Shown: positions 2,548 through 62,167 of the stretch, one piece after another
Layout: each line of letters opens with the position of its first letter
Numbering within the stretch: position 1 is the stretch's first letter
Origin: Shigella phage ESh32
DNA: 64,000 bases
Direction: 5' to 3' (one strand)
Sequence record: ON528742
Notes under the pieces: model-generated
What the model saw: the letters and a program-made list of their open reading frames with translations, nothing else
The model's database searches: none
What the model was told of the DNA's origin: nothing
Program-made: the position numbers and the translations under genes

Positions 2548-2916
2548 ATGATTGAAATTACTCTTAAAAAACCTGAAGATTTTCTGAAAGTAAAAGAAAC
2601 TTTGACTCGTATGGGAATTGCTAATAATAAAGATAAAGTTCTGTATCAGTCCTGTCATATTCTTCAGAAAAAAGGACTATACTATATCGTTCATTTTAAA
2701 GAAATGCTTCGTATGGATGGCCGTCAAGTTGAAATGACAGAAGAAGATGAAGTTCGTCGTGATTCAATTGCATGGCTATTAGAAGATTGGGGACTGATTG
2801 AAATCGTCCCTGGTCAAAGAACTTTTATGAAAGATTTAACTAATAACTTCCGAGTTATTTCTTTTAAACAAAAACATGAATGGAAACTCGTTCCTAAATA
2901 TACGATTGGTAATTAA
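2548..2916 (+). CDS. regA: translational repressor RegA
   Basis: 122 aa; position between 62 and 43. Confidence 0.88.
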   Translation: MIEITLKKPEDFLKVKETLTRMGIANNKDKVLYQSCHILQKKGLYYIVHFKEMLRMDGRQVEMTEEDEVRRDSIAWLLEDWGLIEIVPGQRTFMKDLTNNFRVISFKQKHEWKLVPKYTIGN

Positions 2917-2926
2917 GGTAAATTAT

Positions 2927-3163
2927 ATGACACAATCAGAGATTCAGTTTACCGAAGCTTTTCTAATATTCGAAAATCTAAAACAAGCATATGGTCTGTC
3001 TTCTACTCAACTGGTTTTTGACCTCCCGGAAGATAAACAAATAGAATTCCAAAAAGAATTCCAACGATTAGTTTACCCACGCCAACGCGCATTTCATGCG
3101 ATTATCAAAACCACAAATAAAGATGGCAAGTCCGTTATATCGCGTCGTACAATAGAAATTTAA
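2927..3163 (+). CDS. hypothetical small protein (78 aa) between regA and 43
   Basis: ORF with ATG, followed by hairpin. Confidence 0.5.
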   Translation: MTQSEIQFTEAFLIFENLKQAYGLSSTQLVFDLPEDKQIEFQKEFQRLVYPRQRAFHAIIKTTNKDGKSVISRRTIEI

Positions 3164-3167
3164 AGCA

Positions 3168-3185
3168 AAGGGGCTTCGGCCCCTT
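3168..3185 (+). terminator. GC-rich hairpin AAGGGGC-TTCG-GCCCCTT
   Basis: perfect inverted repeat with TTCG loop after stop codon. Confidence 0.6.
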
Positions 3186-3204
3186 ATTTGGAGTATAATA
3201 TATC

Positions 3205-3243
3205 AAGAGCCTAATAACTCGGGCTATAAACTAAGGAATATCT
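3205..3243 (+). promoter_or_regulatory. gene 43 translational operator (hairpin plus SD)
   Basis: AGAGCCTAATAACTCGGGCTATAAACTAAGGAATATCTATG matches remembered T4 gp43 operator. Confidence 0.6.
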
Positions 3244-5940
3244 ATGAAAGAATTTTATATCTCTATCGAAACAGTCGGAAATAATATTGTTGAACGTTAT
3301 ATTGACGAAAATGGAAAGGAACGTACTCGCGAAGTAGAATATCTTCCGACTATGTTTAGACATTGTAAGGAAGAATCAAAATACAAAGACATTTACGGTA
3401 AAAACTGCGCTCCTCAAAAATTTCCATCAATGAAAGATGCACGAGATTGGATGAAGCGAATGGAAGACATCGGTCTCGAAGCCCTCGGTATGAACGATTT
3501 TAAACTCGCTTATATCAGTGATACATATGGTTCAGAAATTGTTTATGACCGAAAATTTGTTCGTGTAGCTAACTGTGACATTGAGGTTACTGGTGATAAA
3601 TTTCCTGACCCAATGAAAGCTGAATATGAAATTGATGCTATCACTCATTACGATTCAATTGATGATCGTTTTTATGTTTTCGACCTTTTGAATTCAATGT
3701 ATGGTTCAGTATCAAAATGGGATGCAAAGTTAGCTGCTAAGCTTGACTGTGAAGGTGGTGATGAAGTTCCTCAAGAAATTCTTGACCGAGTAATTTATAT
3801 GCCATTCGATAATGAGCGTGATATGCTCATGGAATATATCAATCTCTGGGAACAGAAACGACCTGCTATTTTTACTGGTTGGAATATTGAGGGATTTGAC
3901 GTTCCGTATATCATGAATCGCGTTAAAATGGTTCTCGGTGAACGTAGTATGAAACGCTTCTCTCCAATCGGTCGAGTAAAATCTAAACTTATCCAAAATA
4001 TGTACGGTAGCAAAGAAATTTATTCTATTGATGGCGTATCTATTCTTGATTATTTAGATTTGTATAAGAAATTCGCATTTACTAATTTGCCGTCATTCTC
4101 TTTGGAATCAGTTGCTCAGCATGAAACCAAAAAAGGTAAATTACCATACGACGGTCCTATTAATAAACTTCGTGAGACTAATCATCAACGATACATTAGT
4201 TATAACATCATTGACGTAGAATCAGTTCAAGCAATTGATAAAATTCGCGGGTTTATCGATCTAGTTTTAAGTATGTCTTATTACGCTAAAATGCCTTTTT
4301 CTGGTGTAATGAGTCCTATTAAAACCTGGGATGCTATTATTTTTAACTCATTGAAAGGTGAACACAAGGTTATTCCTCAACAAGGTTCGCATGTTAAACA
4401 GAGTTTTCCGGGTGCATTTGTATTTGAACCTAAACCAATTGCTCGTCGATATATTATGAGTTTTGACTTGACGTCTCTGTATCCGAGCATTATTCGTCAG
4501 GTTAACATTAGTCCTGAGACTATTCGTGGTCAGTTTAAAGTTCATCCAATTCATGAATATATCGCAGGAACAGCTCCTAAACCGAGTGATGAATATTCTT
4601 GTTCTCCGAATGGATGGATGTACGATAAGCATCAAGAAGGTATCATTCCAAAGGAAATCGCTAAAGTATTTTTCCAGCGTAAAGATTGGAAAAAGAAAAT
4701 GTTCGCTGAAGAAATGAATGCCGAAGCTATTAAAAAGATTATTATGAAAGGCTCAGGGTCTTGTTCAACTAAACCTGAAGTTGAACGATATGTTAAGTTC
4801 AGTGATGATTTCTTAAATGAACTATCGAATTATACTGAATCTGTTCTCAATAGTTTGATTGAAGAATGTGAAAAAGCGGCTACACTTGCTAATACAAATC
4901 AGCTGAACCGTAAAATTCTTATTAACAGTCTTTATGGTGCTCTTGGTAATATTCATTTCCGTTACTATGATTTGCGAAATGCTACTGCTATCACAATTTT
5001 CGGCCAAGTTGGTATTCAGTGGATTGCTCGTAAAATTAATGAATATCTGAATAAAGTATGCGGAACTAATGGCGAAGATTTCATTGCAGCAGGTGATACT
5101 GATTCGGTATATGTTTGTGTAGATAAAGTTATTGAAAAAGTTGGTCTTGACCGATTCAAAGAGCAGAACGATTTAGTTGAATTCATGAATCAGTTCGGTA
5201 AGAAAAAGATGGAACCTATGATTGATGTTGCATATCGTGAGTTATGTGATTATATGAATAACCGCGAGCATCTGATGCATATGGACCGTGAAGCTATTTC
5301 TTGCCCTCCACTTGGTTCAAAGGGCGTTGGTGGATTTTGGAAAGCGAAAAAGCGTTATGCTCTGAACGTATATGATATGGAAGATAAGCGTTTTGCTGAA
5401 CCGCATCTAAAAATCATGGGTATGGAAACTCAGCAAAGTTCAACGCCTAAAGCAGTTCAAGAAGCTCTTGAAGAAAGTATTCGTCGTATTCTTCAAGAAG
5501 GCGAAGAGTCTGTTCAAGAATATTATAAGAACTTTGAGAAAGAATATCGTCAACTTGACTATAAAGTTATTGCTGAAGTAAAAACTGCGAACGATATAGC
5601 GAAATATGATGATAAAGGTTGGCCAGGATTTAAATGCCCGTTCCATATTCGTGGGGTGCTAACTTATCGTCGAGCTGTTAACGGTTTAGGTGTAGCTCCA
5701 ATTTTGGATGGAAATAAGGTAATGGTTCTTCCATTACGTGAGGGAAATCCATTTGGTGACAAATGCATTGCTTGGCCGTCGGGTACAGAACTTCCAAAAG
5801 AAATTCGTTCTGACGTACTGTCTTGGATTGACTACTCAACTTTGTTCCAAAAATCGTTTGTTAAACCGCTTGCAGGCATGTGTGAATCGGCTGGTATGGA
5901 CTATGAAGAAAAAGCTTCGTTAGACTTCCTGTTTGGCTGA
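3244..5940 (+). CDS. 43: DNA polymerase gp43 (family B, 3'-5' exonuclease)
   Basis: 898 aa; motifs DxE, YGDTDS, KKRY. Confidence 0.97.
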   Translation: MKEFYISIETVGNNIVERYIDENGKERTREVEYLPTMFRHCKEESKYKDIYGKNCAPQKFPSMKDARDWMKRMEDIGLEALGMNDFKLAYISDTYGSEIVYDRKFVRVANCDIEVTGDKFPDPMKAEYEIDAITHYDSIDDRFYVFDLLNSMYGSVSKWDAKLAAKLDCEGGDEVPQEILDRVIYMPFDNERDMLMEYINLWEQKRPAIFTGWNIEGFDVPYIMNRVKMVLGERSMKRFSPIGRVKSKLIQNMYGSKEIYSIDGVSILDYLDLYKKFAFTNLPSFSLESVAQHETKKGKLPYDGPINKLRETNHQRYISYNIIDVESVQAIDKIRGFIDLVLSMSYYAKMPFSGVMSPIKTWDAIIFNSLKGEHKVIPQQGSHVKQSFPGAFVFEPKPIARRYIMSFDLTSLYPSIIRQVNISPETIRGQFKVHPIHEYIAGTAPKPSDEYSCSPNGWMYDKHQEGIIPKEIAKVFFQRKDWKKKMFAEEMNAEAIKKIIMKGSGSCSTKPEVERYVKFSDDFLNELSNYTESVLNSLIEECEKAATLANTNQLNRKILINSLYGALGNIHFRYYDLRNATAITIFGQVGIQWIARKINEYLNKVCGTNGEDFIAAGDTDSVYVCVDKVIEKVGLDRFKEQNDLVEFMNQFGKKKMEPMIDVAYRELCDYMNNREHLMHMDREAISCPPLGSKGVGGFWKAKKRYALNVYDMEDKRFAEPHLKIMGMETQQSSTPKAVQEALEESIRRILQEGEESVQEYYKNFEKEYRQLDYKVIAEVKTANDIAKYDDKGWPGFKCPFHIRGVLTYRRAVNGLGVAPILDGNKVMVLPLREGNPFGDKCIAWPSGTELPKEIRSDVLSWIDYSTLFQKSFVKPLAGMCESAGMDYEEKASLDFLFG

Positions 5941-5953
5941 TAGAATAAATCTA

Positions 5954-5974
5954 GGGACCTCCGGGTCCCTTTTT
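5954..5974 (+). terminator. stem-loop GGGACC..GGGTCCC plus T-run
   Basis: inverted repeat followed by TTTTT. Confidence 0.7.
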
Positions 5975-6057
5975 CATACAAGTAATATAAATCTATACTT
6001 ATGAAAAACAGATGATTCTGGACCTTTAGAATTCATTAAAAATTTTTTCACAAAACT

Positions 6058-6087
6058 GTTTACAAGACTGTTCTTCCATGGTACTAT
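6058..6087 (+). promoter_or_regulatory. early promoter (GTTTAC, 18 bp, TACTAT)
   Basis: -35 GTTTAC 6058-6063, -10 at 6082-6087. Confidence 0.65.
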
Positions 6088-6124
6088 ATCAATATCAACT
6101 ACTGATACGGATTTGGAGAATGAA

Positions 6125-6505
6125 ATGAAAATCGCTATTTTGGTTATTGCATTAGGTCTTACTGGTTGTGTGGCTCAAGGACCGGTAGTAAATCAGTCTG
6201 ATGTAGGAAAAATTGTAAACTGTTCAAGCAAATTTTATAATCCTAATGTCAAGTGTTATAAAGAAGCTCCAAATCAAACAGTCGAACAAATGCAGGCGAA
6301 TTTTGACGAAGCTATTCGTCCAGATGAATCTGCTCAAGCATATCGTAATTCTGATGTAATTACACGCGAAGAAAAAATTGAAAACTACTGCGCCGAGCTT
6401 TGGGCTAATTGGGCTAATAATTACCAATGGCGTACTGGTAAAAATGCTCCGATGGAGTATGTAGTGAATTCTTATAATTCATGTGTAAAAAATTTGACTA
6501 AGTGA
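6125..6505 (+). CDS. predicted lipoprotein (imm.1-like position)
   Basis: N-terminal signal with lipobox LTGC; SD GGAGAA. Confidence 0.6.
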   Translation: MKIAILVIALGLTGCVAQGPVVNQSDVGKIVNCSSKFYNPNVKCYKEAPNQTVEQMQANFDEAIRPDESAQAYRNSDVITREEKIENYCAELWANWANNYQWRTGKNAPMEYVVNSYNSCVKNLTK

Positions 6506-6512
6506 GGAAAAC

Positions 6513-6764
6513 ATGGAAACTTTAGTAGCAGGTTCAATTTTTATGGTTTTAGTTTCAGGTGTGTTGGCTATTATTATATACATGCTTCCATGGTTCATTG
6601 CCTTGATGCGTGGGTCAAAATCGACAGTAGGAATCTTTTTCACATCTTTACTGTTTAACTGGTCAATTATTGGTTGGTTTATTACATTTATTTGGTCAAT
6701 TGCGGGTGAAACTAAAAAGTCTGCACAACCAAATCAGGTAATTATCATCAGAGAGAAGGAATGA
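6513..6764 (+). CDS. imm: superinfection immunity membrane protein Imm
   Basis: 83 aa, two TM helices, synteny 43-imm-42. Confidence 0.85.
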   Translation: METLVAGSIFMVLVSGVLAIIIYMLPWFIALMRGSKSTVGIFFTSLLFNWSIIGWFITFIWSIAGETKKSAQPNQVIIIREKE

Positions 6765-6910
6765 AAAGCAAAATTATAGCAGTGTTGCTTTTAATCTTGA
6801 TGATTATAATAAGTATATACTATAGTGTAACGGTTCCTCTTATGATTCCAACTATTATTTTAGGTTGGGGTTTATTACTGTTACAAGTTAAATATGAATG
6901 TATCAATTGA
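6761..6910 (+). CDS. small hydrophobic protein (49 aa)
   Basis: ATGA overlap with imm stop; TM-like. Confidence 0.45.
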   Translation: MKSKIIAVLLLILMIIISIYYSVTVPLMIPTIILGWGLLLLQVKYECIN

Positions 6911-6917
6911 GGTTTAA

Positions 6918-7658
6918 ATGATTAGTGACTCTATGACAGTTGAAGAAATCCGTCTTCATTTGGGGCTTGCATTAAAAGAAAAAGATTTCGTAGTTGATAA
7001 AACTGGTGTTAAAACTATTGAAATTATTGGCGCATCATTTGTAGCAGATGAACCGTTTATTTTTGGCGCTCTTAATGATGAATACATTCAGCGTGAACTT
7101 GAATGGTATAAATCTAAGAGCTTGTTTGTTAAAGATATTCCAGGTGAAACACCAAAGATTTGGCAGCAGGTCGCATCTTCTAAAGGCGAAATTAATTCGA
7201 ATTACGGTTGGGCTATTTGGTCAGAAGATAACTACGCCCAGTATGATATGTGTTTAGCTGAACTTGGTCAAAACCCTGATTCTCGACGTGGTATTATGAT
7301 TTATACTCGTCCATCCATGCAATTTGACTACAATAAAGATGGTATGTCAGATTTCATGTGTACTAATACAGTACAGTACCTGATTCGTGATAAGAAAGTC
7401 AATGCAGTAGTAAGCATGCGCTCAAATGACGTGGTCTTCGGATTCCGTAATGATTATGCATGGCAAAAATACGTATTAGATAAATTAGTATTTGATTTGA
7501 ATGCCGGCGATTCAACTCGTCAGTATAAAGCAGGTTCTATTATATGGAATGTCGGAAGTCTTCATGTATATTCTCGTCATTTTTACTTGGTTGATCATTG
7601 GTGGAATACTGGCGAAACTCATATTGTGAAAAAAGACTATAAAGGTGAGTGGAAATGA
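6918..7658 (+). CDS. 42: dCMP hydroxymethylase gp42
   Basis: 246 aa; thymidylate-synthase-like fold; synteny. Confidence 0.93.
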   Translation: MISDSMTVEEIRLHLGLALKEKDFVVDKTGVKTIEIIGASFVADEPFIFGALNDEYIQRELEWYKSKSLFVKDIPGETPKIWQQVASSKGEINSNYGWAIWSEDNYAQYDMCLAELGQNPDSRRGIMIYTRPSMQFDYNKDGMSDFMCTNTVQYLIRDKKVNAVVSMRSNDVVFGFRNDYAWQKYVLDKLVFDLNAGDSTRQYKAGSIIWNVGSLHVYSRHFYLVDHWWNTGETHIVKKDYKGEWK

Positions 7659-8497
7659 TTCAATTCGTAATTCCAAGTTATCAGCGTGTCGGGGCAGTTT
7701 CTGCCCTTGATATGTTTCCGACTGATTATGAACCCCATATTGTAGTGCGTGAACATGAAGAAAAAGCTTATTATGATGCCTATGGGTCTAGAGCTAAAAT
7801 TATAACTATTCCTGATGATGTAAACGGAATTGCCGGTACTCGTAAAGCAATTACTGATATGTATGCAGGTCAACGAATCTGGATGATTGACGATGATACT
7901 ACTATTCGTATGAGTTCAATGCGAAAAAGAGATGACCGTCGTTGTGTGGATAAAGTCAATCAATTAACCCGTGAACAGTTCTATGAATTGATTCAATACG
8001 TCGAAGATGCCATGGATTGTGGGTATTATCACGGTCATGCTCGTCTACCTATTTTTAAAATTACTTCATCTTGGGGTAATTATCGTGAAAATTCATATGG
8101 ATTCACGAATACATGGTATGACCTCGGAAAACTTACTACAGAACAAATTGGGTATGGAAAAATTGATTTGTGCGAAGATATGTATGCATTTCTCAATTTA
8201 ATTAATCAAGGTTATCCGCATTTGGCCTTGTTCAAATATCTGGTTGTATCTGGAAAAGCACAAGCTCCTGGCGGGTGCAGTTCAATTCGTAGTAATTCTA
8301 AACATAATAGAGCGCTTGAGCAAATCAATAGAGAGTTTCCAGAGCAAGCTCGTTGGAAAACTTCTAATATTGAAAAACGAAAATCGTTGGGTGAAGAAGA
8401 CGAGCCATTAAAGGTTCTTCGCATGTGTGTTTCGCGCAAAGAAAAATCAGAAGCATTTCATAAGTTTAATGCTATTCATCCGATAGCAGTTGATTAA
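7655..8497 (+). CDS. putative HMC-DNA glucosyltransferase, T2/T6 type (280 aa) at the locus where T4 has beta-gt
   Basis: position between 42 and uvsX; size unlike the 351-aa T4 beta-gt as remembered. Confidence 0.5.
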   Translation: MIQFVIPSYQRVGAVSALDMFPTDYEPHIVVREHEEKAYYDAYGSRAKIITIPDDVNGIAGTRKAITDMYAGQRIWMIDDDTTIRMSSMRKRDDRRCVDKVNQLTREQFYELIQYVEDAMDCGYYHGHARLPIFKITSSWGNYRENSYGFTNTWYDLGKLTTEQIGYGKIDLCEDMYAFLNLINQGYPHLALFKYLVVSGKAQAPGGCSSIRSNSKHNRALEQINREFPEQARWKTSNIEKRKSLGEEDEPLKVLRMCVSRKEKSEAFHKFNAIHPIAVD

Positions 8498-8574
8498 TGC
8501 CTAAATTTATTGTGTTATAATTACTCTATCTTTAACCAGTGAGGAAAATATAATGATGCCTATGGAAAAAATGA

Positions 8575-9756
8575 ATGTCTATTGCAGATTTAAAATCCCG
8601 TTTGATTAAAGCTTCAACTTCTAAAATGACTGCTGAACTGACTACATCTAAATTCTTTAATGAAAAGGATGTAATCCGTACAAAAATCCCAATGCTTAAT
8701 ATTGCTATTTCTGGTGCGATTGATGGCGGCATGCAGTCTGGTTTAACTATTTTCGCAGGGCCTTCTAAACACTTTAAATCAAATATGTCTTTGACTATGG
8801 TTGCGGCATATTTGAACAAATATCCTGACGCGGTTTGTCTATTCTATGATAGCGAATTTGGTATCACTCCAGCTTATTTGCGATCTATGGGAGTTGACCC
8901 GGAACGAGTAATTCATACACCAATCCAGTCAGTTGAACAGCTGAAAATTGATATGGTGAACCAGCTTGAAGCTATTGAGCGTGGTGAAAAGGTTATTGTA
9001 TTCATCGACTCAATTGGTAATATGGCTTCTAAGAAAGAAACGGAAGATGCCTTGAATGAAAAATCTGTGGCAGATATGACTCGTGCTAAATCACTGAAGT
9101 CATTATTCCGTATTGTTACTCCTTACTTTAGCATTAAAAATATTCCATGTGTTGCGGTTAACCATACAATTGAAACAATTGAAATGTTTAGTAAAACCGT
9201 GATGACAGGCGGTACAGGCGTAATGTATTCGGCTGATACTGTATTCATTATCGGTAAACGTCAGATTAAAGATGGTTCTGATCTTCAGGGATATCAATTT
9301 GTTCTAAATGTAGAAAAATCTCGTACCGTTAAAGAAAAAAGTAAATTCTTTATTGATGTTAAATTTGACGGTGGTATCGATCCTTATTCTGGATTGTTAG
9401 ATATGGCTCTAGAATTAGGATTTGTAGTAAAACCTAAAAATGGCTGGTATGCTCGTGAATTTCTTGACGAAGAAACCGGTGAGATGATTCGCGAAGAAAA
9501 ATCTTGGCGTGCAAAAGATACCAACTGCACTACATTCTGGGGTCCTTTATTTAAGCATCAACCATTCCGAGATGCTATTAAACGTGCTTATCAGTTAGGT
9601 GCTATTGATAGTAATGAAATTGTTGAAGCTGAAGTTGATGAATTGATTAACTCAAAGGTTGAAAAATTTAAATCTCCAGAAAGTAAAAGTAAATCAGCAG
9701 CTGATTTAGAAACTGACCTCGAGCAGTTAAGTGATATGGAAGAATTTAATGAATAA
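8575..9756 (+). CDS. uvsX: recombinase UvsX (RecA-like)
   Basis: 393 aa; Walker A GPSKHFKS; synteny. Confidence 0.95.
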   Translation: MSIADLKSRLIKASTSKMTAELTTSKFFNEKDVIRTKIPMLNIAISGAIDGGMQSGLTIFAGPSKHFKSNMSLTMVAAYLNKYPDAVCLFYDSEFGITPAYLRSMGVDPERVIHTPIQSVEQLKIDMVNQLEAIERGEKVIVFIDSIGNMASKKETEDALNEKSVADMTRAKSLKSLFRIVTPYFSIKNIPCVAVNHTIETIEMFSKTVMTGGTGVMYSADTVFIIGKRQIKDGSDLQGYQFVLNVEKSRTVKEKSKFFIDVKFDGGIDPYSGLLDMALELGFVVKPKNGWYAREFLDEETGEMIREEKSWRAKDTNCTTFWGPLFKHQPFRDAIKRAYQLGAIDSNEIVEAEVDELINSKVEKFKSPESKSKSAADLETDLEQLSDMEEFNE

Positions 9757-13018: not shown

Positions 13019-13375
13019 ATGTATAGTTCTGAATTTTCATATTTAAAAATGGAAAAAATTTCATACGATTTTATAGATGAAAAGGTTTATTATAGTTTCC
13101 ATGAACCACGTTTTAATAGTGAGGTTGGGTTTATTGTAGTAAAAGACAATTTCATTTTAAAGATATATTCGGCATTAAAGGATTTTCACTACGAAAATAT
13201 TAACCTAAAATTTGATAAAGAAAACGTTCGTAATTGTGCAGTAACAATTACAGGAAATAAAGGTACGTGTGTTATGTTATCTGATGAAATTAATGATTTG
13301 CTAAATGATGCCGAAAAGGTTGCTATTCCATCTATTGATGACCAAATTTTTAATGCTTTTATGAATAGAGGTTAA
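13019..13375 (+). CDS. hypothetical protein, single repeat unit (118 aa), paralog of preceding ORF
   Basis: same VKDN motif and near-identical C-terminal tail. Confidence 0.6.
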   Translation: MYSSEFSYLKMEKISYDFIDEKVYYSFHEPRFNSEVGFIVVKDNFILKIYSALKDFHYENINLKFDKENVRNCAVTITGNKGTCVMLSDEINDLLNDAEKVAIPSIDDQIFNAFMNRG

Positions 13376-13543: not shown

Positions 13544-14572
13544 ATGTCATCAATACCTTGGATTGATAATGAGTTTGCATATCGTGCATTAGCTCATTTA
13601 CCTAAATTCACACAAGTAAATAATAGTTCAACTTTTAAATTACGGTTTAGATGCCCTGTTTGTGGAGATTCAAAAACCGATCAGAATAAAGCTCGTGGAT
13701 GGTATTATGGTGATAATAATGAAGGAAATATTCATTGTTATAACTGTAACTATCATGCACCAATCGGAATATATTTAAAGGAGTTTGAACCCGATTTATA
13801 TCGTGAGTATATCTTTGAAATAAGAAAAGAAAAAGGTAAAAGTCGTCCAGTAGAAAAACCTAAAGAACTTCCTAAACAACCTGAGAAGAAAATAATTAAA
13901 TCTCTTCCGTCATGTGTTAGATTAGATAAACTGGCGGAAGACCATCCAATTATAAAATATGTAAAAGCTCGTTGTATTCCAAAGGATAAATGGAAATATC
14001 TTTGGTTTACAACCGAATGGCCTAAATTAGTTAATAGCATAGCACCGGGAACATACAAAAAGGAAATTTCTGAGCCTCGTCTTGTTATTCCAATTTATAA
14101 TGCTAACGGAAAAGCTGAGTCTTTTCAAGGACGTGCATTAAAGAAAGATGCTCCTCAAAAATATATCACCATTAAAGCTTATCCTGAGGCAACAAAAATT
14201 TACGGTGTTGAACGAGTTAAAGATGGTGATGTATATGTTCTAGAAGGACCTATAGATTCACTTTTTATTGAAAATGGTATAGCTATTACAGGTGGTCAAT
14301 TAGACCTAGAAGTTGTTCCATTTAAAGATAGACGAGTGTGGGTTTTAGATAATGAACCTCGTCACCCTGACACTATCAAACGAATGACTAAATTAGTTGA
14401 TGCAGGAGAAAGGGTTATGTTTTGGGATAAATCTCCCTGGAAATCAAAAGATGTCAATGATATGATTAGAAAGGAAGGTGCAACCCCTGAACAAATTATG
14501 GAATATATGAAAAATAATATTGCCCAGGGGTTAATGGCTAAAATGCGGTTATCTAAATATGCTAAGATTTAA
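13544..14572 (+). CDS. 61: DNA primase gp61
   Basis: 342 aa; zinc ribbon CPVC...CYNC; Toprim. Confidence 0.93.
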   Translation: MSSIPWIDNEFAYRALAHLPKFTQVNNSSTFKLRFRCPVCGDSKTDQNKARGWYYGDNNEGNIHCYNCNYHAPIGIYLKEFEPDLYREYIFEIRKEKGKSRPVEKPKELPKQPEKKIIKSLPSCVRLDKLAEDHPIIKYVKARCIPKDKWKYLWFTTEWPKLVNSIAPGTYKKEISEPRLVIPIYNANGKAESFQGRALKKDAPQKYITIKAYPEATKIYGVERVKDGDVYVLEGPIDSLFIENGIAITGGQLDLEVVPFKDRRVWVLDNEPRHPDTIKRMTKLVDAGERVMFWDKSPWKSKDVNDMIRKEGATPEQIMEYMKNNIAQGLMAKMRLSKYAKI

Positions 14573-14769
14573 ATCAACCCAACTAAAGCAAATGCTAAAT
14601 CTACAAATGTATCAAGAGTAACTACTGGAATATTAACACCATGCGCAATTGCAATTGGTGATAAAATAAAGTTCCAGAGTAAAATTCCTACCATAGCAGA
14701 AATAGTAAAAGCTATACGTTTCTTATTACCTTTTATGGCATTAACAAGTGCCATTAATTTTTGTACCAT
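14569..14769 (-). CDS. small two-TM membrane protein (66 aa) on late strand
   Basis: AGGAGG 4 nt upstream of ATG; AATAAATA late-promoter-like box upstream. Confidence 0.45.
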   Translation of the reverse strand: MVQKLMALVNAIKGNKKRIAFTISAMVGILLWNFILSPIAIAHGVNIPVVTLDTFVDLAFALVGLI

Positions 14770-14782
14770 ATGTCCTCCTTAT

Positions 14783-14806
14783 TGCTTTATATATTTATTG
14801 TATAAT
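14783..14806 (+). promoter_or_regulatory. putative middle promoter (MotA box TGCTTTA plus TATAAT)
   Basis: TGCTTTA 14783-14789, TATAAT 14801-14806, 11-bp spacing. Confidence 0.45.
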
Positions 14807-14840
14807 TAATCTACTAACCCATGAATTGAAAGGAAAAATA

Positions 14841-15359
14841 ATGGCTTACTTTAACGAATGTTCACAACTGATTGAAGGCGCTGATAAAGCTCAAAATGAA
14901 TATTGGGATATTCTCGGTGATGAAAAAGACCCGCTGCAGGTAATGCTCGATATGCAGAAATCTCTGCAAGTTCGTTTAGCTAAAGATAAACCTGAATATA
15001 ATCGTCATCCTGATGACTTGGCTACTGCAGGTGAAGTTGTTGATTGGTTGCGTAATCAGAAAGATTATATTGACGATGAATTCCGTGAACTTCTGACTTC
15101 TCTTGGTGGTATGAGCAATGGTGAAAAAGATGCATCTGCTGTATGGAAACCTTGGAAGTCGCAGCATGGTGAACGTCGTGAAACTCTGATTACTGATTTG
15201 TCTCCACAAGACCAATTGGAAATTAAATTTGAAATGATTGATATTCTCCATTTCGTTCTGAACATGTTCCAAGGTCTTGGTCTTACAGCAGAAGAAATCT
15301 TTAAACTTTATTATCTAAAAAATGCCGAAAACTTTGCTCGTCAAGACCGAGGTTATTAA
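14841..15359 (+). CDS. 56: dCTPase/dUTPase gp56
   Basis: 172 aa from MAYFNE; MazG-like; synteny. Confidence 0.85.
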   Translation: MAYFNECSQLIEGADKAQNEYWDILGDEKDPLQVMLDMQKSLQVRLAKDKPEYNRHPDDLATAGEVVDWLRNQKDYIDDEFRELLTSLGGMSNGEKDASAVWKPWKSQHGERRETLITDLSPQDQLEIKFEMIDILHFVLNMFQGLGLTAEEIFKLYYLKNAENFARQDRGY

Positions 15360-25475: not shown

Positions 25476-25652
25476 ATGCCAATGTATGATTATAAATGCC
25501 AATCCGAAGATTGCGGGCATGAATATGAAAAAATTAAAAAGATTTCTGAACGAGAAAATGATGTTTGCCCTAAATGTCATCGTTTGTCTACTCGTCGGCC
25601 TTCTGCTCCTAAGCATGTGAATGGCGGTTTTTACGATTTACTTAAAGGGTGA
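25476..25652 (+). CDS. zinc-ribbon protein (58 aa)
   Basis: CxxC...CxxC motifs. Confidence 0.5.
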   Translation: MPMYDYKCQSEDCGHEYEKIKKISERENDVCPKCHRLSTRRPSAPKHVNGGFYDLLKG

Positions 25653-25654
25653 TT

Positions 25655-26029
25655 ATGTTTAAAATCGGTAAGAAATATCGTGTTCGCGAAGGTGAAGAAA
25701 AGAAATATCTACTTTCTACTAGTAATAGGAGTGGTTCTATTAATGCCGTAATATCTACAAGCGAATTTATCGTTGAAGATATGAAAGGTCATAATGTTAC
25801 AATGATTAGTACAGCAACTAGCAGAAATGCTGGAAAAATTCTTCACAGTTTTCAGAGTAATGTTCTAATTTATGATGAAGAATTTGACTTCTTCGAAGAA
25901 GTTCCTGAAGATTTTGATTTTGAATGCACTATTACTATGAAATCTGGTGACCCTCTTTCTTTTACAGTTAAAGATGAAAGAAGCCGTTTGAGAATTATTA
26001 GTCTCCTTCAAGCCATTAAATTTAAGTGA
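25655..26029 (+). CDS. hypothetical protein (124 aa)
   Basis: ORF. Confidence 0.55.
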   Translation: MFKIGKKYRVREGEEKKYLLSTSNRSGSINAVISTSEFIVEDMKGHNVTMISTATSRNAGKILHSFQSNVLIYDEEFDFFEEVPEDFDFECTITMKSGDPLSFTVKDERSRLRIISLLQAIKFK

Positions 26030-26295: not shown

Positions 26296-26364
26296 AAGGC
26301 CTTCGGGCCTTTAGCTTTATGATTGCCGGAGTATAATATTCCCGAAACCAAACGAGGATAAGTG

Positions 26365-28182
26365 ATGATTAAGAATGAAATTAAAATTCTGAGCGATATT
26401 GAACATATCAAAAAGCGTAGTGGCATGTATATTGGCTCTTCTGCTAATGAAATGCATGAGCGCTTTCTGTTTGGTAAATGGGAAAGTGTTCAGTATGTAC
26501 CTGGTCTTGTTAAGCTTATTGATGAAATTATCGATAACTCAGTAGATGAAGGTATTCGTACTAAGTTTAAATTCGCAAATAAAATTAATGTTACTATTAA
26601 AAACAATCAAGTAACAGTTGAAGATAACGGTCGCGGTATTCCACAGGCGATGGTTAAAACACCTACCGGTGAAGAAATTCCTGGTCCTGTTGCTGCATGG
26701 ACTATTCCAAAAGCAGGTGGTAACTTTGGTGATGATAAAGAACGTGTCACCGGTGGTATGAATGGTGTTGGTTCTAGTTTAACTAACATTTTTTCTGTGA
26801 TGTTTGTCGGTGAAACTGGCGATGGTCAAAATAATATTGTAGTTCGTTGTTCAAATGGCATGGAAAATAAATCCTGGGAAACTATTCCAGGAAAATGGAA
26901 AGGAACCCGTGTTACTTTCATTCCTGATTTTATGTCATTTGAAACTAATGAGCTGTCCCAAGTTTATCTTGACATTACACTAGATCGTCTCCAGACACTT
27001 GCTGTTGTTTATCCTGATATTCAATTTACTTTTAATGGTAAAAAGGTTCAGGGCAATTTTAAGAAATATGCACGACAGTATGATGAACATGCTATTGTTC
27101 AAGAACAAGAAAATTGTTCTATTGCGGTTGGTCGTTCACCGGATGGTTTTCGTCAATTAACTTACGTGAATAACATTCATACTAAGAATGGTGGCCATCA
27201 CATTGACTGTGTTATGGATGATATTTGCGAAGACCTTATTCCACAAATCAAACGTAAATTCAAAATTGATGTAACTAAAGCACGCGTTAAAGAATGTTTG
27301 ACTATCGTTATGTTTGTTCGTGATATGAAAAACATGCGATTTGATTCTCAAACTAAAGAGCGTTTGACTTCTCCATTTGGCGAAATTCGTAGTCATATTC
27401 AGCTTGATGCTAAAAAGATTTCACGCGCTATTCTAAATAATGAAGCAATTTTAATGCCGATTATTGAAGCTGCTTTAGCACGTAAATTGGCGGCAGAAAA
27501 AGCAGCAGAAACTAAAGCAGCTAAAAAGGCTTCTAAAGCTAAGGTTCATAAACATATCAAAGCGAATCTTTGTGGTAAAGATGCTGACACTACTCTTTTC
27601 TTGACTGAGGGTGATTCTGCTATCGGATATCTTATTGATGTTCGTGATAAAGAACTTCATGGTGGTTATCCATTGCGCGGTAAAGTTCTTAATAGTTGGG
27701 GTATGTCATATGCTGATATGCTTAAAAACAAAGAACTATTTGATATTTGCGCAATCACTGGATTAGTTCTTGGTGAAAAAGCTGAAAACTTGAATTATCA
27801 TAATATTGCTATTATGACCGATGCTGACCATGATGGTTTAGGAAGCATTTATCCTTCTCTGCTCGGATTTTTTAGTAATTGGCCAGAACTGTTTGAACAA
27901 GGAAGAATTCGCTTTGTCAAAACTCCTGTAATCATCGCTCAGGTCGGTAAAAAACAAGAATGGTTTTATACAGTCGCTGAATATGAGAGTGCCAAAGATG
28001 CTCTACCTAAACATAGCATCCGTTATATTAAGGGACTTGGCTCTTTGGAAAAATCTGAATATCGTGAGATGATTCAAAACCCAGTATATGATGTTGTTAA
28101 ACTTCCTGAGAACTGGAAAGAGCTTTTTGAAATGCTCATGGGAGATAATGCTGACCTTCGTAAAGAATGGATGAGCCAGTAG
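26365..28182 (+). CDS. 39: topoisomerase II large subunit gp39, undivided (605 aa)
   Basis: GHKL ATPase plus Toprim in one ORF; C-terminus equals T4 gp60 region. Confidence 0.93.
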   Translation: MIKNEIKILSDIEHIKKRSGMYIGSSANEMHERFLFGKWESVQYVPGLVKLIDEIIDNSVDEGIRTKFKFANKINVTIKNNQVTVEDNGRGIPQAMVKTPTGEEIPGPVAAWTIPKAGGNFGDDKERVTGGMNGVGSSLTNIFSVMFVGETGDGQNNIVVRCSNGMENKSWETIPGKWKGTRVTFIPDFMSFETNELSQVYLDITLDRLQTLAVVYPDIQFTFNGKKVQGNFKKYARQYDEHAIVQEQENCSIAVGRSPDGFRQLTYVNNIHTKNGGHHIDCVMDDICEDLIPQIKRKFKIDVTKARVKECLTIVMFVRDMKNMRFDSQTKERLTSPFGEIRSHIQLDAKKISRAILNNEAILMPIIEAALARKLAAEKAAETKAAKKASKAKVHKHIKANLCGKDADTTLFLTEGDSAIGYLIDVRDKELHGGYPLRGKVLNSWGMSYADMLKNKELFDICAITGLVLGEKAENLNYHNIAIMTDADHDGLGSIYPSLLGFFSNWPELFEQGRIRFVKTPVIIAQVGKKQEWFYTVAEYESAKDALPKHSIRYIKGLGSLEKSEYREMIQNPVYDVVKLPENWKELFEMLMGDNADLRKEWMSQ

Positions 28183-54639: not shown

Positions 54640-54995
54640 ATGTCTGACATTCATGTAGCTGGAATTGCTCGAGTAAGTATTCGTTGCCAACTTAAAACTG
54701 CGCCTGGGACGGCTTATATTAATTTATCACACGACCTATGTTCTAGTGAAAGACCATTAACTGGTGTAATTACGTTTTACGCTGGAGTTGGCGGAAACGA
54801 ATTTACTGTAGGCGAATTTGTTGGCTGTAAATTAAAAGTTCAGAAAAATGTGTTAGAACTTTTTAGCGATCTTTATGGTGATAGTGATGAAGTTTTTGAT
54901 GAAATCGCGCAAGCAGTTAACAGAGGAATGGTAATTTTAGTTAAAATGATTAAAGATAGCGGATTTGCTTCTGGCCCCTTTCAGTGGGAGGTAAT

Positions 54996-54999
<4 letters not shown>
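54640..54999 (+). CDS. hypothetical protein (119 aa)
   Basis: SD GAGGAAAA. Confidence 0.55.
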
Positions 55000-55825
<826 letters not shown>

Positions 55826-55845
55826 AATAACGCGTGGCGGAAAAT

Positions 55846-56193
55846 ATGAACTTTAATTATTACCCTATTCTATTAGAAAAAGACGCGAAACAACCAAAAT
55901 GGCAGGGTCCTCAGTTTATTAAAGGCGTCTATCAATTAGTAGTTCCTAAAGACAAGATTTATAGTAGTTGTTTCACTGAATCCGCTTGCAGTATTTTCGG
56001 TAATAGTTCTCCGTATTGGAATTTTGATATAAAACTGGATAGAAATATCGATATTTGGTTGAAAGCCATGGATATTGGCAATATTACGTTTGATGAGAAT
56101 AATTATCATATTATTGGTCGCTTTTCTAAACGCGGTAAAGAATTATATTTCACTCCTGAAATCGAAAGAAAATTTGATGCTAAACCGTATTGA
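55846..56193 (+). CDS. hypothetical protein (115 aa) in insertion between frd and td
   Basis: ORF inside a 409-bp segment flanked by AAATGAAA direct repeats. Confidence 0.5.
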   Translation: MNFNYYPILLEKDAKQPKWQGPQFIKGVYQLVVPKDKIYSSCFTESACSIFGNSSPYWNFDIKLDRNIDIWLKAMDIGNITFDENNYHIIGRFSKRGKELYFTPEIERKFDAKPY

Positions 56194-56238
56194 TTATTTA
56201 GCTTCATAAAATGTATTATAATTTATATAAGGTACTAA

Positions 56239-56787
56239 ATGAAACAATACCAAGATTTAATTAAAGACATTTTTGAAAATGGCTATGAAACCGATGACCG
56301 AACAGGCACAGGAACAATTGCTTTGTTCGGTACTAAATTGCGCTGGGATTTAACTAAAGGTTTTCCTGCGGTAACAACTAAGAAGCTCGCCTGGAAAGCT
56401 TGCATTGCTGAGCTAATATGGTTTTTATCAGGAAGCACAAATGTCAATGATTTACGATTAATTCAGCATGATTCGTTAATCCAAGGCAAAACAGTCTGGG
56501 ATGAAAATTACGAAAATCAAGCAAAAGATTTAGGATACCATAGCGGTGAACTTGGTCCAATTTATGGAAAACAGTGGCGTGATTTTGGCGGTGTAGATCA
56601 AATTATAGAAGTTATTGATCGTATTAAAAAACTGCCAAATGATAGGCGTCAAATTGTTTCTGCGTGGAATCCAGCTGAACTTAAATATATGGCATTACCG
56701 CCTTGTCATATGTTCTATCAGTTTAATGTGCGTAATGGCTATTTGGATTTGCAGTGGTATCAGCGATCAGTAGATGTTTTCTTGGGT
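56239..56787 (+). CDS. td: thymidylate synthase exon 1
   Basis: 183 codons ending at GGT immediately before intron TAATTGAGGCCTGAG. Confidence 0.95.
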
Positions 56788-57803
56788 TAATTGAGGCCTG
56801 AGTATAAGGTGACTTATACTTGTAATCTATCTAAACGGGGAACCTCTCTAGTAGACAATCCCGTGCTAAATTGTAGGACTGCCCTTTAATAAATACTTCT
56901 ATATTTAAAGAGGTATTTATGAAAAGCGGAATTTATCAGATTAAAAATACTTTAAACAATAAAGTATATGTAGGAAGTGCTAAAGATTTTGAAAAGAGAT
57001 GGAAGAGGCATTTTAAAGATTTAGAAAAAGGATGCCATTCTTCTATAAAACTTCAGAGGTCTTTTAACAAACATGGTAATGTGTTTGAATGTTCTATTTT
57101 GGAAGAAATTCCATATGAGAAAGATTTGATTATTGAACGAGAAAATTTTTGGATTAAAGAGCTTAATTCTAAAATTAATGGATACAATATTGCTGATGCA
57201 ACGTTTGGTGATACATGTTCTACGCATCCATTAAAAGAAGAAATTATTAAAAAACGTTCTGAAACTGTTAAAGCTAAGATGCTTAAACTTGGACCTGATG
57301 GTCGGAAAGCTCTTTACAGTAAACCCGGAAGTAAAAACGGGCGTTGGAATCCAGAAACCCATAAGTTTTGTAAGTGCGGTGTTCGCATACAAACTTCTGC
57401 TTATACTTGTAGTAAATGCAGAAATCGTTCAGGTGAAAATAATTCATTCTTTAATCATAAGCATTCAGACATAACTAAATCTAAAATATCAGAAAAGATG
57501 AAAGGTAAAAAGCCTAGTAATATTAAAAAGATTTCATGTGATGGGGTTATTTTTGATTGTGCAGCAGATGCAGCTAGACATTTTAAAATTTCGTCTGGAT
57601 TAGTTACTTATCGTGTAAAATCTGATAAATGGAATTGGTTCTACATAAATGCCTAACGACTATCCCTTTGGGGAGTAGGGTCAAGTGACTCGAAACGATA
57701 GACAACTTGCTTTAACAAGTTGGAGATATAGTCTGATCTGCATGGTGACATGCAGCTGGATATAATTCCGGGGTAAGATTAACGACCTTATCTGAACATA
57801 ATG
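56788..57803 (+). mobile_element. group I self-splicing intron (td intron, 1016 nt) carrying I-TevI
   Basis: 5' and 3' intron ends match the remembered T4 td intron; interrupts TS reading frame. Confidence 0.9.
56919..57656 (+). CDS. I-TevI: homing endonuclease I-TevI (GIY-YIG)
   Basis: 245 aa; GIYQIKN...VYVGSA motif; inside td intron. Confidence 0.93.
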   Translation: MKSGIYQIKNTLNNKVYVGSAKDFEKRWKRHFKDLEKGCHSSIKLQRSFNKHGNVFECSILEEIPYEKDLIIERENFWIKELNSKINGYNIADATFGDTCSTHPLKEEIIKKRSETVKAKMLKLGPDGRKALYSKPGSKNGRWNPETHKFCKCGVRIQTSAYTCSKCRNRSGENNSFFNHKHSDITKSKISEKMKGKKPSNIKKISCDGVIFDCAADAARHFKISSGLVTYRVKSDKWNWFYINA

Positions 57804-58115
57804 CTTCCATTTAATATTGCATCATATGCTGCGTTAGTTCATATTGTAGCTAAGATGTGTAATCTTATTCCTGGAGATTTGATATTTTCTGGCGGTAATA
57901 CTCATATCTATATGAATCACGTAGAACAATGTAAAGAAATTTTACGTCGTGAACCTAAAGAGCTTTGTGAACTGGTAATAGGCGGATTGCCTTATAAATT
58001 CCGTTATCTTTCTACTAAAGAACAATTGGAATACATTCTTAAACTCAGGCCTAAAGATTTCGTTCTCAAAGATTATCAGTCCCACGGTGTCTTGAAAGGA
58101 AAAATGGCGGTATAA
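57804..58115 (+). CDS. td: thymidylate synthase exon 2
   Basis: continues LPFNIASYA...; exon1 plus exon2 gives 286 aa. Confidence 0.95.
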   Translation, partial: LPFNIASYAALVHIVAKMCNLIPGDLIFSGGNTHIYMNHVEQCKEILRREPKELCELVIGGLPYKFRYLSTKEQLEYILKLRPKDFVLKDYQSHGVLKGKMAV

Positions 58116-58138
58116 TTTTAATTTAATTGCGAGGATAT

Positions 58139-58402
58139 ATGATTTTACGATTTAAAGATACTTCTGGTGTCGTTCTTTTTACACTTCCTAATCCAAGTGA
58201 GTTAGAAGTTCCAGGACCAAATCAGCCTATTATCATTTATGGCAAAAAATATTATACTCATAAAATGACCCGTGAGTATTTTGATAATAAAATTTCTACA
58301 GTTAAAACTTCTTCAGATTGTTACTATGATATTACTGTTTTAACGGAAAAACAATATGACGAATTATCACCGCGCGGGCCGTCTATGCCAGGTAGTGAAT
58401 AA
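58139..58402 (+). CDS. hypothetical protein (87 aa)
   Basis: SD GAGGA. Confidence 0.5.
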
Positions 58403-58682
58403 ATATAAATCTGACTTTGATGTTAATATTCACCGCGGTACATTTTGGGGAAATTACGTCGGTAAAGATGCTGGCAGCCGGGAGGCTGCCATTGAATTAT
58501 TCAAAAAAGATTTTATACGTCGAATTAAATCCGGAGAAATAACTAAAGCACATTTAGAGCCTTTACGTGGAATGAGGCTAGGATGCACATGTAAACCAAA
58601 GCCGTGTCATGGTGATATAATAGCTCATATAGTTAACCGATTGTTTAAAGACGATTTTCAAGTTGAGGACTTATGCAATTAA
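58356..58682 (+). CDS. hypothetical protein with CxC...CH motif (DUF4326-like, 108 aa)
   Basis: motifs FWGNY and [11 protein letters not shown]; overlaps previous ORF by 47 nt. Confidence 0.5.
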
Positions 58683-60937
58683 TTAATGTTATCAAAAGTA
58701 GTGGTGTTTCTCAGAGCTTTGACCCGCAAAAAATTATTAAAGTTTTATCTTGGGCAGCTGAAGGAACATCTGTAGATCCTTATGAATTATATGAAAATAT
58801 TAAATCATATCTCCGTGATGGAATGACCACTGATGACATTCAAACCATTGTAATTAAGGCTGCTGCGAATTCTATTTCAGTTGAAGAGCCTGATTATCAA
58901 TACGTAGCTGCACGCTGTTTAATGTTTGCTCTTCGTAAGCATGTTTACGGACAATATGAACCGCGTTCATTTATTGACCATATTTCTTACTGCGTAAATG
59001 AAGGTAAATACGACCCTGAATTATTGTCAAAATATTCAGCAGAAGAAATTACATTTTTAGAATCAAAAATTAAGCACGAGCGGGATATGGAATTTACTTA
59101 TTCCGGGGCGATGCAATTAAAAGAAAAATATCTAGTTAAAGATAAAACCACTGGTCAAATTTATGAAACTCCACAGTTTGCATTTATGACTATTGGAATG
59201 GCATTGCATCAAGATGAACCTGTTGATAGATTAAAACATGTTATCCGTTTTTATGAAGCGGTATCTACTCGACAGATTTCATTGCCAACTCCTATTATGG
59301 CTGGTTGCCGTACTCCAACCCGGCAGTTTAGTTCATGCGTTGTTATTGAGGCAGGTGATTCATTAAAGTCTATCAATAAGGCTTCCGCTTCAATTGTTGA
59401 ATATATCTCTAAACGCGCTGGAATTGGTATTAACGTTGGTATGATTCGTGCTGAAGGTTCTAAGATTGGCATGGGTGAAGTACGCCATACTGGTGTTATT
59501 CCTTTTTGGAAACATTTTCAGACTGCTGTTAAATCATGCTCACAGGGTGGAATTCGTGGCGGCGCTGCTACTGCTTATTATCCTATTTGGCATTTGGAAG
59601 TTGAAAATCTTCTTGTTTTGAAAAATAACAAAGGCGTAGAAGAAAACCGCATTCGTCATATGGATTATGGTGTTCAACTGAATGATTTGATGATGGAACG
59701 TTTTGGAAAGAACGATTACATTACTTTGTTTAGTCCCCATGAAATGGGCGGAGAGCTTTATTATTCTTATTTTAAAGACCAAGACCGTTTCCGTGAATTA
59801 TACGAAGCAGCAGAAAAAGACCCTAATATTCGTAAAAAGCGTATTAAAGCTCGTGAACTATTTGAATTGCTCATGACTGAACGCTCAGGAACAGCAAGGA
59901 TTTATGTACAGTTCATTGATAATACGAATAACTATACTCCGTTTATTCGTGAAAAGGCACCTATTCGTCAGAGTAACTTGTGCTGTGAAATTGCTATTCC
60001 AACAAATGATGTGAATAGTCCTGATGCTGAAATTGGATTGTGTACTCTCTCTGCATTCGTACTGGATAATTTTGACTGGCAAGACCAAGATAAAATTAAT
60101 GAATTGGCAGAAGTCCAGGTTCGTGCTCTTGATAATCTTTTGGATTACCAAGGATATCCAGTTCCTGAAGCAGAAAAAGCTAAAAAGCGTCGTAACCTCG
60201 GTGTAGGTGTTACTAACTATGCAGCTTGGTTGGCAAGTAACTTTGCTTCTTATGAAGATGCTAACGATTTAACACATGAACTATTTGAGAGATTACAGTA
60301 TGGACTCATTAAAGCATCCATTAAACTCGCCAAAGAAAAAGGACCTTGTGAATATTATTCAGACACTCGTTGGTCTCGAGGCGAATTACCTATCGACTGG
60401 TACAATAAAAAGATTGACCAAATCGCAGCTCCAAAATACGTTTGTGACTGGTCGTCGCTGCGGGAAGACCTTAAGCTCTTTGGCATCCGTAATAGCACAC
60501 TATCAGCACTTATGCCATGTGAGTCATCTTCCCAAGTTTCTAACAGTACAAACGGTATCGAGCCTCCACGTGGACCAGTCTCTGTTAAAGAATCAAAAGA
60601 GGGTTCCTTTAATCAAGTCGTGCCCAATATTGAACATAACATAGACCTATATGATTATACATGGAAATTAGCTAAGAAAGGTAATAAACCTTATCTTACG
60701 CAGGTAGCTATTATGCTGAAATGGGTGTGTCAATCAGCTTCAGCGAATACATATTATGACCCACAGATTTTTCCAAAAGGAAAGGTTCCAATGTCAATAA
60801 TGATTGATGACCTTTTGTATTTTTGGTATTTTGGCGGAAAAAATTTCTATTATCATAATACCCGTGATGGTTCTGGTACTGATGATTATGAAATAGAAAC
60901 TCCAAAAGCTGAAGATTGTTCATCCTGTAAATTATGA
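58673..60937 (+). CDS. nrdA: ribonucleotide reductase large subunit NrdA
   Basis: 754 aa; ATP-cone and class I RNR motifs. Confidence 0.95.
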   Translation: MQLINVIKSSGVSQSFDPQKIIKVLSWAAEGTSVDPYELYENIKSYLRDGMTTDDIQTIVIKAAANSISVEEPDYQYVAARCLMFALRKHVYGQYEPRSFIDHISYCVNEGKYDPELLSKYSAEEITFLESKIKHERDMEFTYSGAMQLKEKYLVKDKTTGQIYETPQFAFMTIGMALHQDEPVDRLKHVIRFYEAVSTRQISLPTPIMAGCRTPTRQFSSCVVIEAGDSLKSINKASASIVEYISKRAGIGINVGMIRAEGSKIGMGEVRHTGVIPFWKHFQTAVKSCSQGGIRGGAATAYYPIWHLEVENLLVLKNNKGVEENRIRHMDYGVQLNDLMMERFGKNDYITLFSPHEMGGELYYSYFKDQDRFRELYEAAEKDPNIRKKRIKARELFELLMTERSGTARIYVQFIDNTNNYTPFIREKAPIRQSNLCCEIAIPTNDVNSPDAEIGLCTLSAFVLDNFDWQDQDKINELAEVQVRALDNLLDYQGYPVPEAEKAKKRRNLGVGVTNYAAWLASNFASYEDANDLTHELFERLQYGLIKASIKLAKEKGPCEYYSDTRWSRGELPIDWYNKKIDQIAAPKYVCDWSSLREDLKLFGIRNSTLSALMPCESSSQVSNSTNGIEPPRGPVSVKESKEGSFNQVVPNIEHNIDLYDYTWKLAKKGNKPYLTQVAIMLKWVCQSASANTYYDPQIFPKGKVPMSIMIDDLLYFWYFGGKNFYYHNTRDGSGTDDYEIETPKAEDCSSCKL

Positions 60938-60988
60938 TATAATTTGACTCACGGACGAGTCACCAACTATTAACTAAGCGGAAAATTT

Positions 60989-62167
60989 ATGAGCACAGTT
61001 TTTAATACAAATCCAGTTGATGTTTTAAAAGAACCTATGTTTTTTGGTTCAGGTCTTGGTATTGCGCGTTATGATATTCAACGTCATAAAGTTTTTGAAG
61101 ATTTAACCGAAAAGCAGTTGTCATTTTTCTGGCGTCCTGAAGAAGTAAACTTAATGATGGATGCTGCACAGTTTAATAAGCTTCCTCAATATCAGCAGAA
61201 TATTTTTACTAATAATCTGAAGTATCAATCACTTCTAGATAGCATTCAGGGTCGTGCACCGTCTGCTGTACTTATGTCATTGATTTCAGACCCAAGCCTT
61301 GATACATGGGTTGCTACATGGACTTTTAGTGAAACCATTCACAGTCGTTCATACACTCATATTATGCGAAATCTTTATACTGATCCGTCAAAGGTATTTG
61401 ATGAGATTGTATTAGATAAAGCTATCATGAAACGTGCTGAATCTATTGGTCGTTATTATGATGATGTTCTGGACAAGACACGTATTTGGGAAAACGCCAA
61501 AGAAAACTTTAGTTATTTTGCTGAAAATGAATATGATTTAGAAGCATATTCAAACAGTCTCACTCATTTGGAAGAATGTAAACGAGACCTGATGAAGTCG
61601 CTTTATCTCTGTCTGCACGTTATCAATGCTCTGGAAGCTATTCGTTTTTATGTATCTTTCGCATGTACCTTTAACTTCCATAAGAACATGGAAATCATGG
61701 AAGGTAATGCCAAGATTATGAAGTTCATTGCACGTGATGAGCAGCTTCATCTTAAAGGTACACAATATATTATTCGTCAACTTCAATCTGGTACTGATGG
61801 CGATGAATGGGTTAAAATTGCTCAAGAGTGTGAACAAGAAGCAGTTGATATTTTCATGGAAGTTAACCGCCAAGAAAAAGATTGGGCAGTTCATTTATTT
61901 AAAGATGGCGATGTTCCTGGATTAAATACAAATAGCATGTGGAGCTTTATTGATTACTTAACTGTATCTCGTATGAAACAGTGTGGTCTTCCATGCCCAA
62001 TTACCGATGCTCCGGTTAAACATCCGTATCCTTGGATTCGTGAATACCTTAATTCTGATAATGTTCAATCCGCGCCGCAAGAAGTAGAATTGTCATCTTA
62101 TCTTGTTGCACAGATTGATAATGATGTTGATGATAAAGTTATGATGAGTTTTAAAAAATACTTTTAA
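60989..62167 (+). CDS. nrdB: ribonucleotide reductase small subunit NrdB, intronless
   Basis: 392 aa continuous ORF; di-iron ligands. Confidence 0.93.
   Translation: MSTVFNTNPVDVLKEPMFFGSGLGIARYDIQRHKVFEDLTEKQLSFFWRPEEVNLMMDAAQFNKLPQYQQNIFTNNLKYQSLLDSIQGRAPSAVLMSLISDPSLDTWVATWTFSETIHSRSYTHIMRNLYTDPSKVFDEIVLDKAIMKRAESIGRYYDDVLDKTRIWENAKENFSYFAENEYDLEAYSNSLTHLEECKRDLMKSLYLCLHVINALEAIRFYVSFACTFNFHKNMEIMEGNAKIMKFIARDEQLHLKGTQYIIRQLQSGTDGDEWVKIAQECEQEAVDIFMEVNRQEKDWAVHLFKDGDVPGLNTNSMWSFIDYLTVSRMKQCGLPCPITDAPVKHPYPWIREYLNSDNVQSAPQEVELSSYLVAQIDNDVDDKVMMSFKKYF

Follow-up and report, generated by a model that had tools for sequence, protein, structure and literature searches.

Phage T4 carries its beta-glucosyltransferase gene (b-gt) beside gene 42, and a different, 280-codon open reading frame (ORF) lies at this position in Shigella phage ESh32. 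We asked which enzyme this ORF encodes and what it predicts about the glucosylation of the phage DNA. The analysis covered a 64,000-nucleotide stretch of record ON528742 (hereafter the window), which is Tequatrovirus DNA, ~96–97% identical over 25 kb to phages AR1, wV7, JK1 and NR1 without matching any of them fully. We conclude that the ORF is almost certainly a T2/T6-type gene (ba-gt, also ggt or TAGT) for an enzyme that adds a second glucose, giving gentiobiosyl-5-hydroxymethylcytosine (gentiobiosyl-hmC) through the pathway proposed below.

The locus between gene 42 and uvsX

A single plus-strand ORF, 280 codons and a stop, extends from ATG 7655 to TAA 8497, between gene 42 and uvsX (Table 1); the sequence-only reading had its coordinates, size and neighbours right. 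In the program-made ORF list, the frame instead begins at an in-frame GTG at 7649 (282 aa). We prefer ATG 7655 because the Shine-Dalgarno-like sequence AAGGTGAG lies 7 nt upstream, because this ATG shares bases with the stop codon of gene 42 (ATGA), and because it is the annotated start of the T2, JK1, NR1 and EL copies. The GTG start was rejected, as it overlaps the ribosome-binding stretch and is used by no annotated relative. The ATGA overlap suggests translational coupling between gene 42 and the glucosyltransferase gene. Comparison with five relatives revealed 102 synonymous and 14 non-synonymous codon changes and, since copies are also present in 474 phage records, the ORF is a real gene and not a chance reading frame.

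A scan around the glucosyltransferase gene for a promoter or terminator of its own returned nothing beyond the level of shuffled sequence. A GC-rich hairpin (GGGGCAG TTT CTGCCCT, 7691–7707) followed by a T-rich stretch looked terminator-like in the scan and is kept in T2, T6 and NR1. It sits 36 nt into the glucosyltransferase coding sequence, and we did not regard it as functional.

DNA similarity to T4 extends to 7640, short of the end of gene 42 by 18 nt, and restarts at 8587, 12 nt into uvsX. In T4, the intervening 1.94 kb holds b-gt and the homing endonuclease gene segA; in the window, the 946 bp between these points (7641–8586) hold one gene. The difference between T4 and the window is a clean cassette swap between conserved genes. 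The order gene 42–glucosyltransferase–uvsX, with its ATGA overlap, is common to T2, T6, JK1, NR1 and EL. The gene 42 product also gave thymidylate-synthase-family matches under the cut-offs, as expected for such a paralogue.

Using tBLASTn, we found no match to T4 b-gt and no segA, alpha-glucosyltransferase gene (a-gt) or dam anywhere in the 64-kb window. In JK1, NR1, EL, T2 and T6, a-gt lies past genes 45–47, ~4.5 kb beyond the point that matches the 5′ end of the window; judging from the maps of these relatives, the ESh32 a-gt would be expected outside the window, on its 5′ side. The interval from gene 61 (primase) to gene 56 (dCTPase), at 13544–15359, is without dam, like that of T6 and NR1 and unlike that of T4, T2 and EL.

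Table 1 Features of the ba-gt locus and of the associated hmC pathway in the window
Feature	Position	Strand	Basis or remark
Gene 42, dCMP hydroxymethylase	6918..7658	+	96.7% identity to T4 gp42
Shine-Dalgarno-like AAGGTGAG	7642..7649	+	Sequence reading; 7 nt 5′ of ATG 7655, within the final codons of gene 42
CDS, 280-aa beta-glucosyl-HMC-alpha-glucosyltransferase (ba-gt / ggt / TAGT)	7655..8497	+	JK1/NR1/T2/T6 identity, PHROG 842, PF20691
Arg11 codon	7685..7687	+	R in 99% of 139 family members
Asp79-Asp80-Asp81 codons, DXD-type GT-A motif	7889..7897	+	99%, 100% and 94% of 139 members
Glu174-Asp175 codons, candidate catalytic-base motif	8174..8179	+	E174 in 83%, D175 in 100% of 139 members
uvsX, 3′ flank and cassette boundary	8575..9756	+	90.5% identity to T4 UvsX
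Gene 56, dCTPase, also of the hmC pathway	14841..15359	+	73% identity to T4 gp56, full length

Elsewhere in the window, the large topoisomerase II subunit is encoded by one 606-aa ORF (26362–28182), and the locus shows no T4-type split into genes 39 and 60, no mobA/60.1 insertion and no 50-nt translational bypass segment. Within 56236–62167, the alignment of the td region to T4 continues across the intron, an I-TevI-like homing endonuclease ORF lies at 56919–57656, and nrdB is one continuous ORF (392 aa, 60989–62167), with neither the nrdB intron nor mobE present. On the minus strand, the segment 39548–43508 has no DNA similarity to T4. Here, gp38 is of the T2 type, a tail-fibre adhesin of 262 aa (PHROG 2056, E = 7e-110), where T4 has a 183-aa chaperone, and gp37 (1104 aa) is also unlike T4 in its distal part; the gp38 type and the distal gp37 imply that receptors are recognized in a T2-like manner. 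Small ORFs at 2876–3163, 13019–13375, 25649–26029, 54640–54999 and 55834–56193 occupy segments without T4 DNA similarity. A sixth, at 6761–6910 between imm and gene 42, codes for a hydrophobic peptide of 49 aa; it lies within a T4-similar block (3163–7640), yet has no annotated T4 counterpart. All six fall into PHROG families of unknown function, frequent in T4-like phages. No tRNA genes were found in the 64-kb window.

Identity, conserved residues and predicted fold

The sequence-only reading had called a T2/T6-type glucosyltransferase from position and size, and had proposed comparing it with T2/T6 ba-gt and with T4 b-gt and a-gt. Direct comparison bears out the call. The window protein is identical (100%) to the JK1 protein annotated as beta-glucosyl-HMC-alpha-glucosyltransferase, matches the NR1 protein at 279 of 280 positions (the sole difference being D24N) and the T2 protein at 278 of 280 (R11H and P251S), and differs from the T6 and EL proteins at 4 and 7 positions, respectively. 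It also matches PHROG 842, ‘beta-glucosyl-HMC-alpha-glucosyltransferase’, over residues 1–275 (E = 6e-89), and the Pfam family PF20691, TAGT (TET-associated glycosyltransferase), with 38.9 bits at a gathering cut-off of 27.5 bits. In contrast to T2 and T6, the T4 pair showed no similarity to the window protein in BLASTP (b-gt, best E = 2.2; a-gt, none), which rules out homology with either by this search. Relationship to an unrelated protein family did not emerge; what emerged were the T2/T6, PHROG 842 and TAGT matches. No NCBIfam model fits the protein, and a PDB sequence search returned chance matches only (E above 1). The family as a whole comprises 336 representative clusters at E = 1e-3 or better among 1.84 billion proteins.

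The published T2 and T6 copies carry differences of their own. All three independent T2 records, AP018813 (L002:7283-8125), MH751506 (L007:1786-2628) and LC348380 (L008:1795-2637), have both R11H and P251S. In the T6 record AP018814 (L003:7135-7974), a deletion of 3 nt takes one Asp out of the DDD motif, and in T6 MH550421 (L005:2138-2980) a CAG-to-TAG change places an amber codon at Q10, with the gene annotated from a downstream Met. Either drift in laboratory stocks or sequencing error would account for the T6 lesions. The window copy has neither the T2 substitutions nor either T6 lesion.

In an alignment of 139 full-length family members, R11, R63, D79-D80-D81, E174-D175, G186, G206-G207 and R212 are near-invariant, and the window protein has all of them. 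An AlphaFold2 model generated from ten homologues was of moderate confidence (mean pLDDT 69.7, pTM 0.72), with a well-defined N-terminal half and pLDDT below 50 at residues 126–151 and 203–211. The protein models as a GT-A-fold, GT2-like glycosyltransferase, in which the DDD motif comes after a predicted strand (E74–77). By analogy with other GT-A enzymes of this kind, the DDD motif would hold a divalent metal together with the UDP moiety of UDP-glucose, and Glu174/Asp175 would probably supply the catalytic base, as the ED/TED motif does in inverting GT2 enzymes. These catalytic roles are assigned by analogy because no family member has a sequence-detectable solved structure. The same likeness makes an inverting mechanism most likely; an inverting reaction from UDP-alpha-glucose agrees with the beta-1,6 linkage in gentiobiose.

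Predicted glucosylation of ESh32 DNA

The gene 42 product makes hmC, the base on which the glucoses are built. In the proposed pathway, the products of genes 42 and 56 would bring hmC into the phage DNA, a phage alpha-glucosyltransferase encoded outside the window would place an alpha-linked glucose on it, and the window enzyme would transfer a beta-linked second glucose from UDP-glucose to the 6-OH of the first, forming gentiobiosyl-hmC. This second sugar would mask alpha-glucosyl-hmC from defences that recognize it, such as the Brig1 glycosylase. Gene identity, motif conservation and fold class come from the present analysis; the chemistry and phenotype come from papers on near-identical genes. 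The DNA of T6 Δba-gt contains only alpha-glucosyl-hmC, and this mutant shows greater sensitivity to Brig1 (PMC11078745); T6 Δg-gt DNA becomes a substrate of the BapA glucosidase (PMC13160076). When analysed by LC-MS, NR1 and six further Tequatroviruses encoding a-GT and TAGT had ~2/3 gentiobiosyl-hmC and ~1/3 bare hmC, with alpha-glucosyl-hmC as a trace only and no beta-glucosyl-hmC (PMC13390438). The ESh32 gene points to a probable decoration of the same kind, in which alpha-glucosyl-hmC is capped by a beta-1,6-linked glucose and beta-glucosyl-hmC is absent. Such a decoration influences the range of host defences that can attack the DNA: gentiobiosyl-hmC evades Brig1 and BapA, yet is cut by GmrSD/BrxU-type enzymes (PMC11078745, PMC13160076, PMC13390438, PMC13216743).

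Presence of the gene predicts gentiobiosyl-hmC, not its amount. Gentiobiosyl-hmC makes up ~5% in T2 and ~72% in T6 (PMC13390438, PMC13160076), whose proteins are ~98–99% identical; it reaches ~67% in the NR1 group and ~40% in the Durham phages EL, BGP and Geo, TAGT carriers with an intermediate 1:2:2 ratio (PMC13390438). Because phages with near-identical proteins span 5% to 72%, the composition of ESh32 DNA is not fixed by its sequence. We infer that ESh32 DNA would be mostly gentiobiosylated, like that of NR1 and T6.

An unlikely, though not negligible, outcome is that ESh32 resembles T2, with the gene present, a trace (~5%) of gentiobiosyl-hmC and DNA that is essentially mono-alpha-glucosylated. 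T2 itself combines a 99% identical gene with such a trace (PMC13390438, PMC13160076), EL, BGP and Geo stop at their intermediate ratio, and JK1, whose protein is that of the window, is the closest relative of EL. On the other side, the window copy has neither R11H, at a position where 99% of the family have Arg, nor P251S. Among the phages characterized by LC-MS, its allele is nearer to that of the high-gentiobiosyl NR1 (1 difference) than to that of EL (7 differences), a proximity that does not in itself make these residues the cause of the different ratios. The absence of dam between genes 61 and 56 also sets the window with T6 and NR1 and apart from T2 and EL. Among the few phages compared, those with dam have a lower gentiobiosyl content, and dam is probably a lineage marker only. 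Nearness to NR1, Arg11 and the absence of dam favour the high class rather than prove it.

R11H, with or without P251S, may underlie the ~5% gentiobiosyl-hmC of T2 as against the ~72% of T6. A broader version, in which natural alleles set the ratio of mono- to diglucosylated hmC and the window allele (Arg11) is fully active and predicts mostly gentiobiosylated DNA, can be offered only tentatively. If true, it bears on T2 more than on the window. In the related literature, consulted without a targeted search, we met no statement that R11H causes the low gentiobiosyl content of T2.

The predicted gentiobiosylation would not follow if the protein were a functional stand-in for T4 beta-glucosyltransferase, placing a single beta-linked glucose straight onto bare hmC. 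The gene does share the b-gt locus, and many database records label the window-type gene ‘b-gt’ or ‘putative beta-glucosyltransferase’. This reading is nevertheless highly improbable: the two proteins have no sequence similarity, the fold class is GT-A here and GT-B for beta-GT (PMC13216743), carriers of the gene show no beta-glucosyl-hmC and leave ~1/3 of hmC bare (PMC13390438), and T6 without the gene retains only alpha-glucosyl-hmC (PMC11078745). Least probable of all is an inactive remnant. The lesions in two sequenced laboratory T6 stocks (AP018814, Asp loss; MH550421, Q10 amber) mean that the gene can decay in culture, but the window copy has lost none of its length and none of the near-invariant residues, and its differences from relatives are almost exclusively synonymous.

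Distribution and comparison with known systems

At ≥90% identity over ≥80% of the length, ba-gt is present in 474 records of the phage collection. T4 b-gt is found in 29 records and a-gt in 503, a number equal to the sum of 474 and 29; these counts fit a universal pairing of a-gt with one or the other. With 474 ba-gt records against 29 with b-gt, ba-gt is the majority state in T4-like coliphages and T4 is the exception. In a published survey, most phages with T-even-type glucosyltransferases pair an alpha-GT or beta-GT with a TAGT, and the alpha-GT plus beta-GT pair is limited to six close T4 relatives (PMC13216743); the arrangement in the window is thus the common one. The ‘b-gt’ labels carried by ba-gt genes are mislabelling. 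Correct naming is of use in phage annotation, in host-range prediction and in the handling of such DNA with restriction enzymes, although it brings nothing new to the field.

Inverting GT2-family GT-A enzymes, for example TarP, RmlT and BcsA, share only 6–17% sequence identity with the window protein. Unlike these, it acts on a sugar carried by DNA as its acceptor, and it has no membrane or polymerising domains.

T4 b-gt (351 aa, GT-B) occupies the same genomic slot, uses the same UDP-glucose donor, forms a beta linkage and helps to protect hmC DNA. Its acceptor is bare hmC in DNA, whereas that of the window enzyme is the glucose of alpha-glucosyl-hmC; it is also accompanied by segA, which the window gene is not. 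T4 beta-glucosyltransferase belongs to CAZy family GT63. PMC13216743 has alpha-GT as GT63 and beta-GT as GT72, the reverse of that assignment.

Between genes 43 and 56, the gene order around the TAGT of Escherichia phage vB_Eco_NR1 (LR990704) is that of the window, with dam likewise absent; the NR1 genome, ~96.5% identical over 25 kb, is that of another phage. The ba-gt genes of T2 and T6 agree with the window gene in length (280 aa), in locus and in how the start overlaps the stop codon of gene 42, and their family-conserved residues are all in the window copy, with no difference of substance between them. The window gene encodes the T2/T6 enzyme already described for this locus, and the finding, while correct, was already known.
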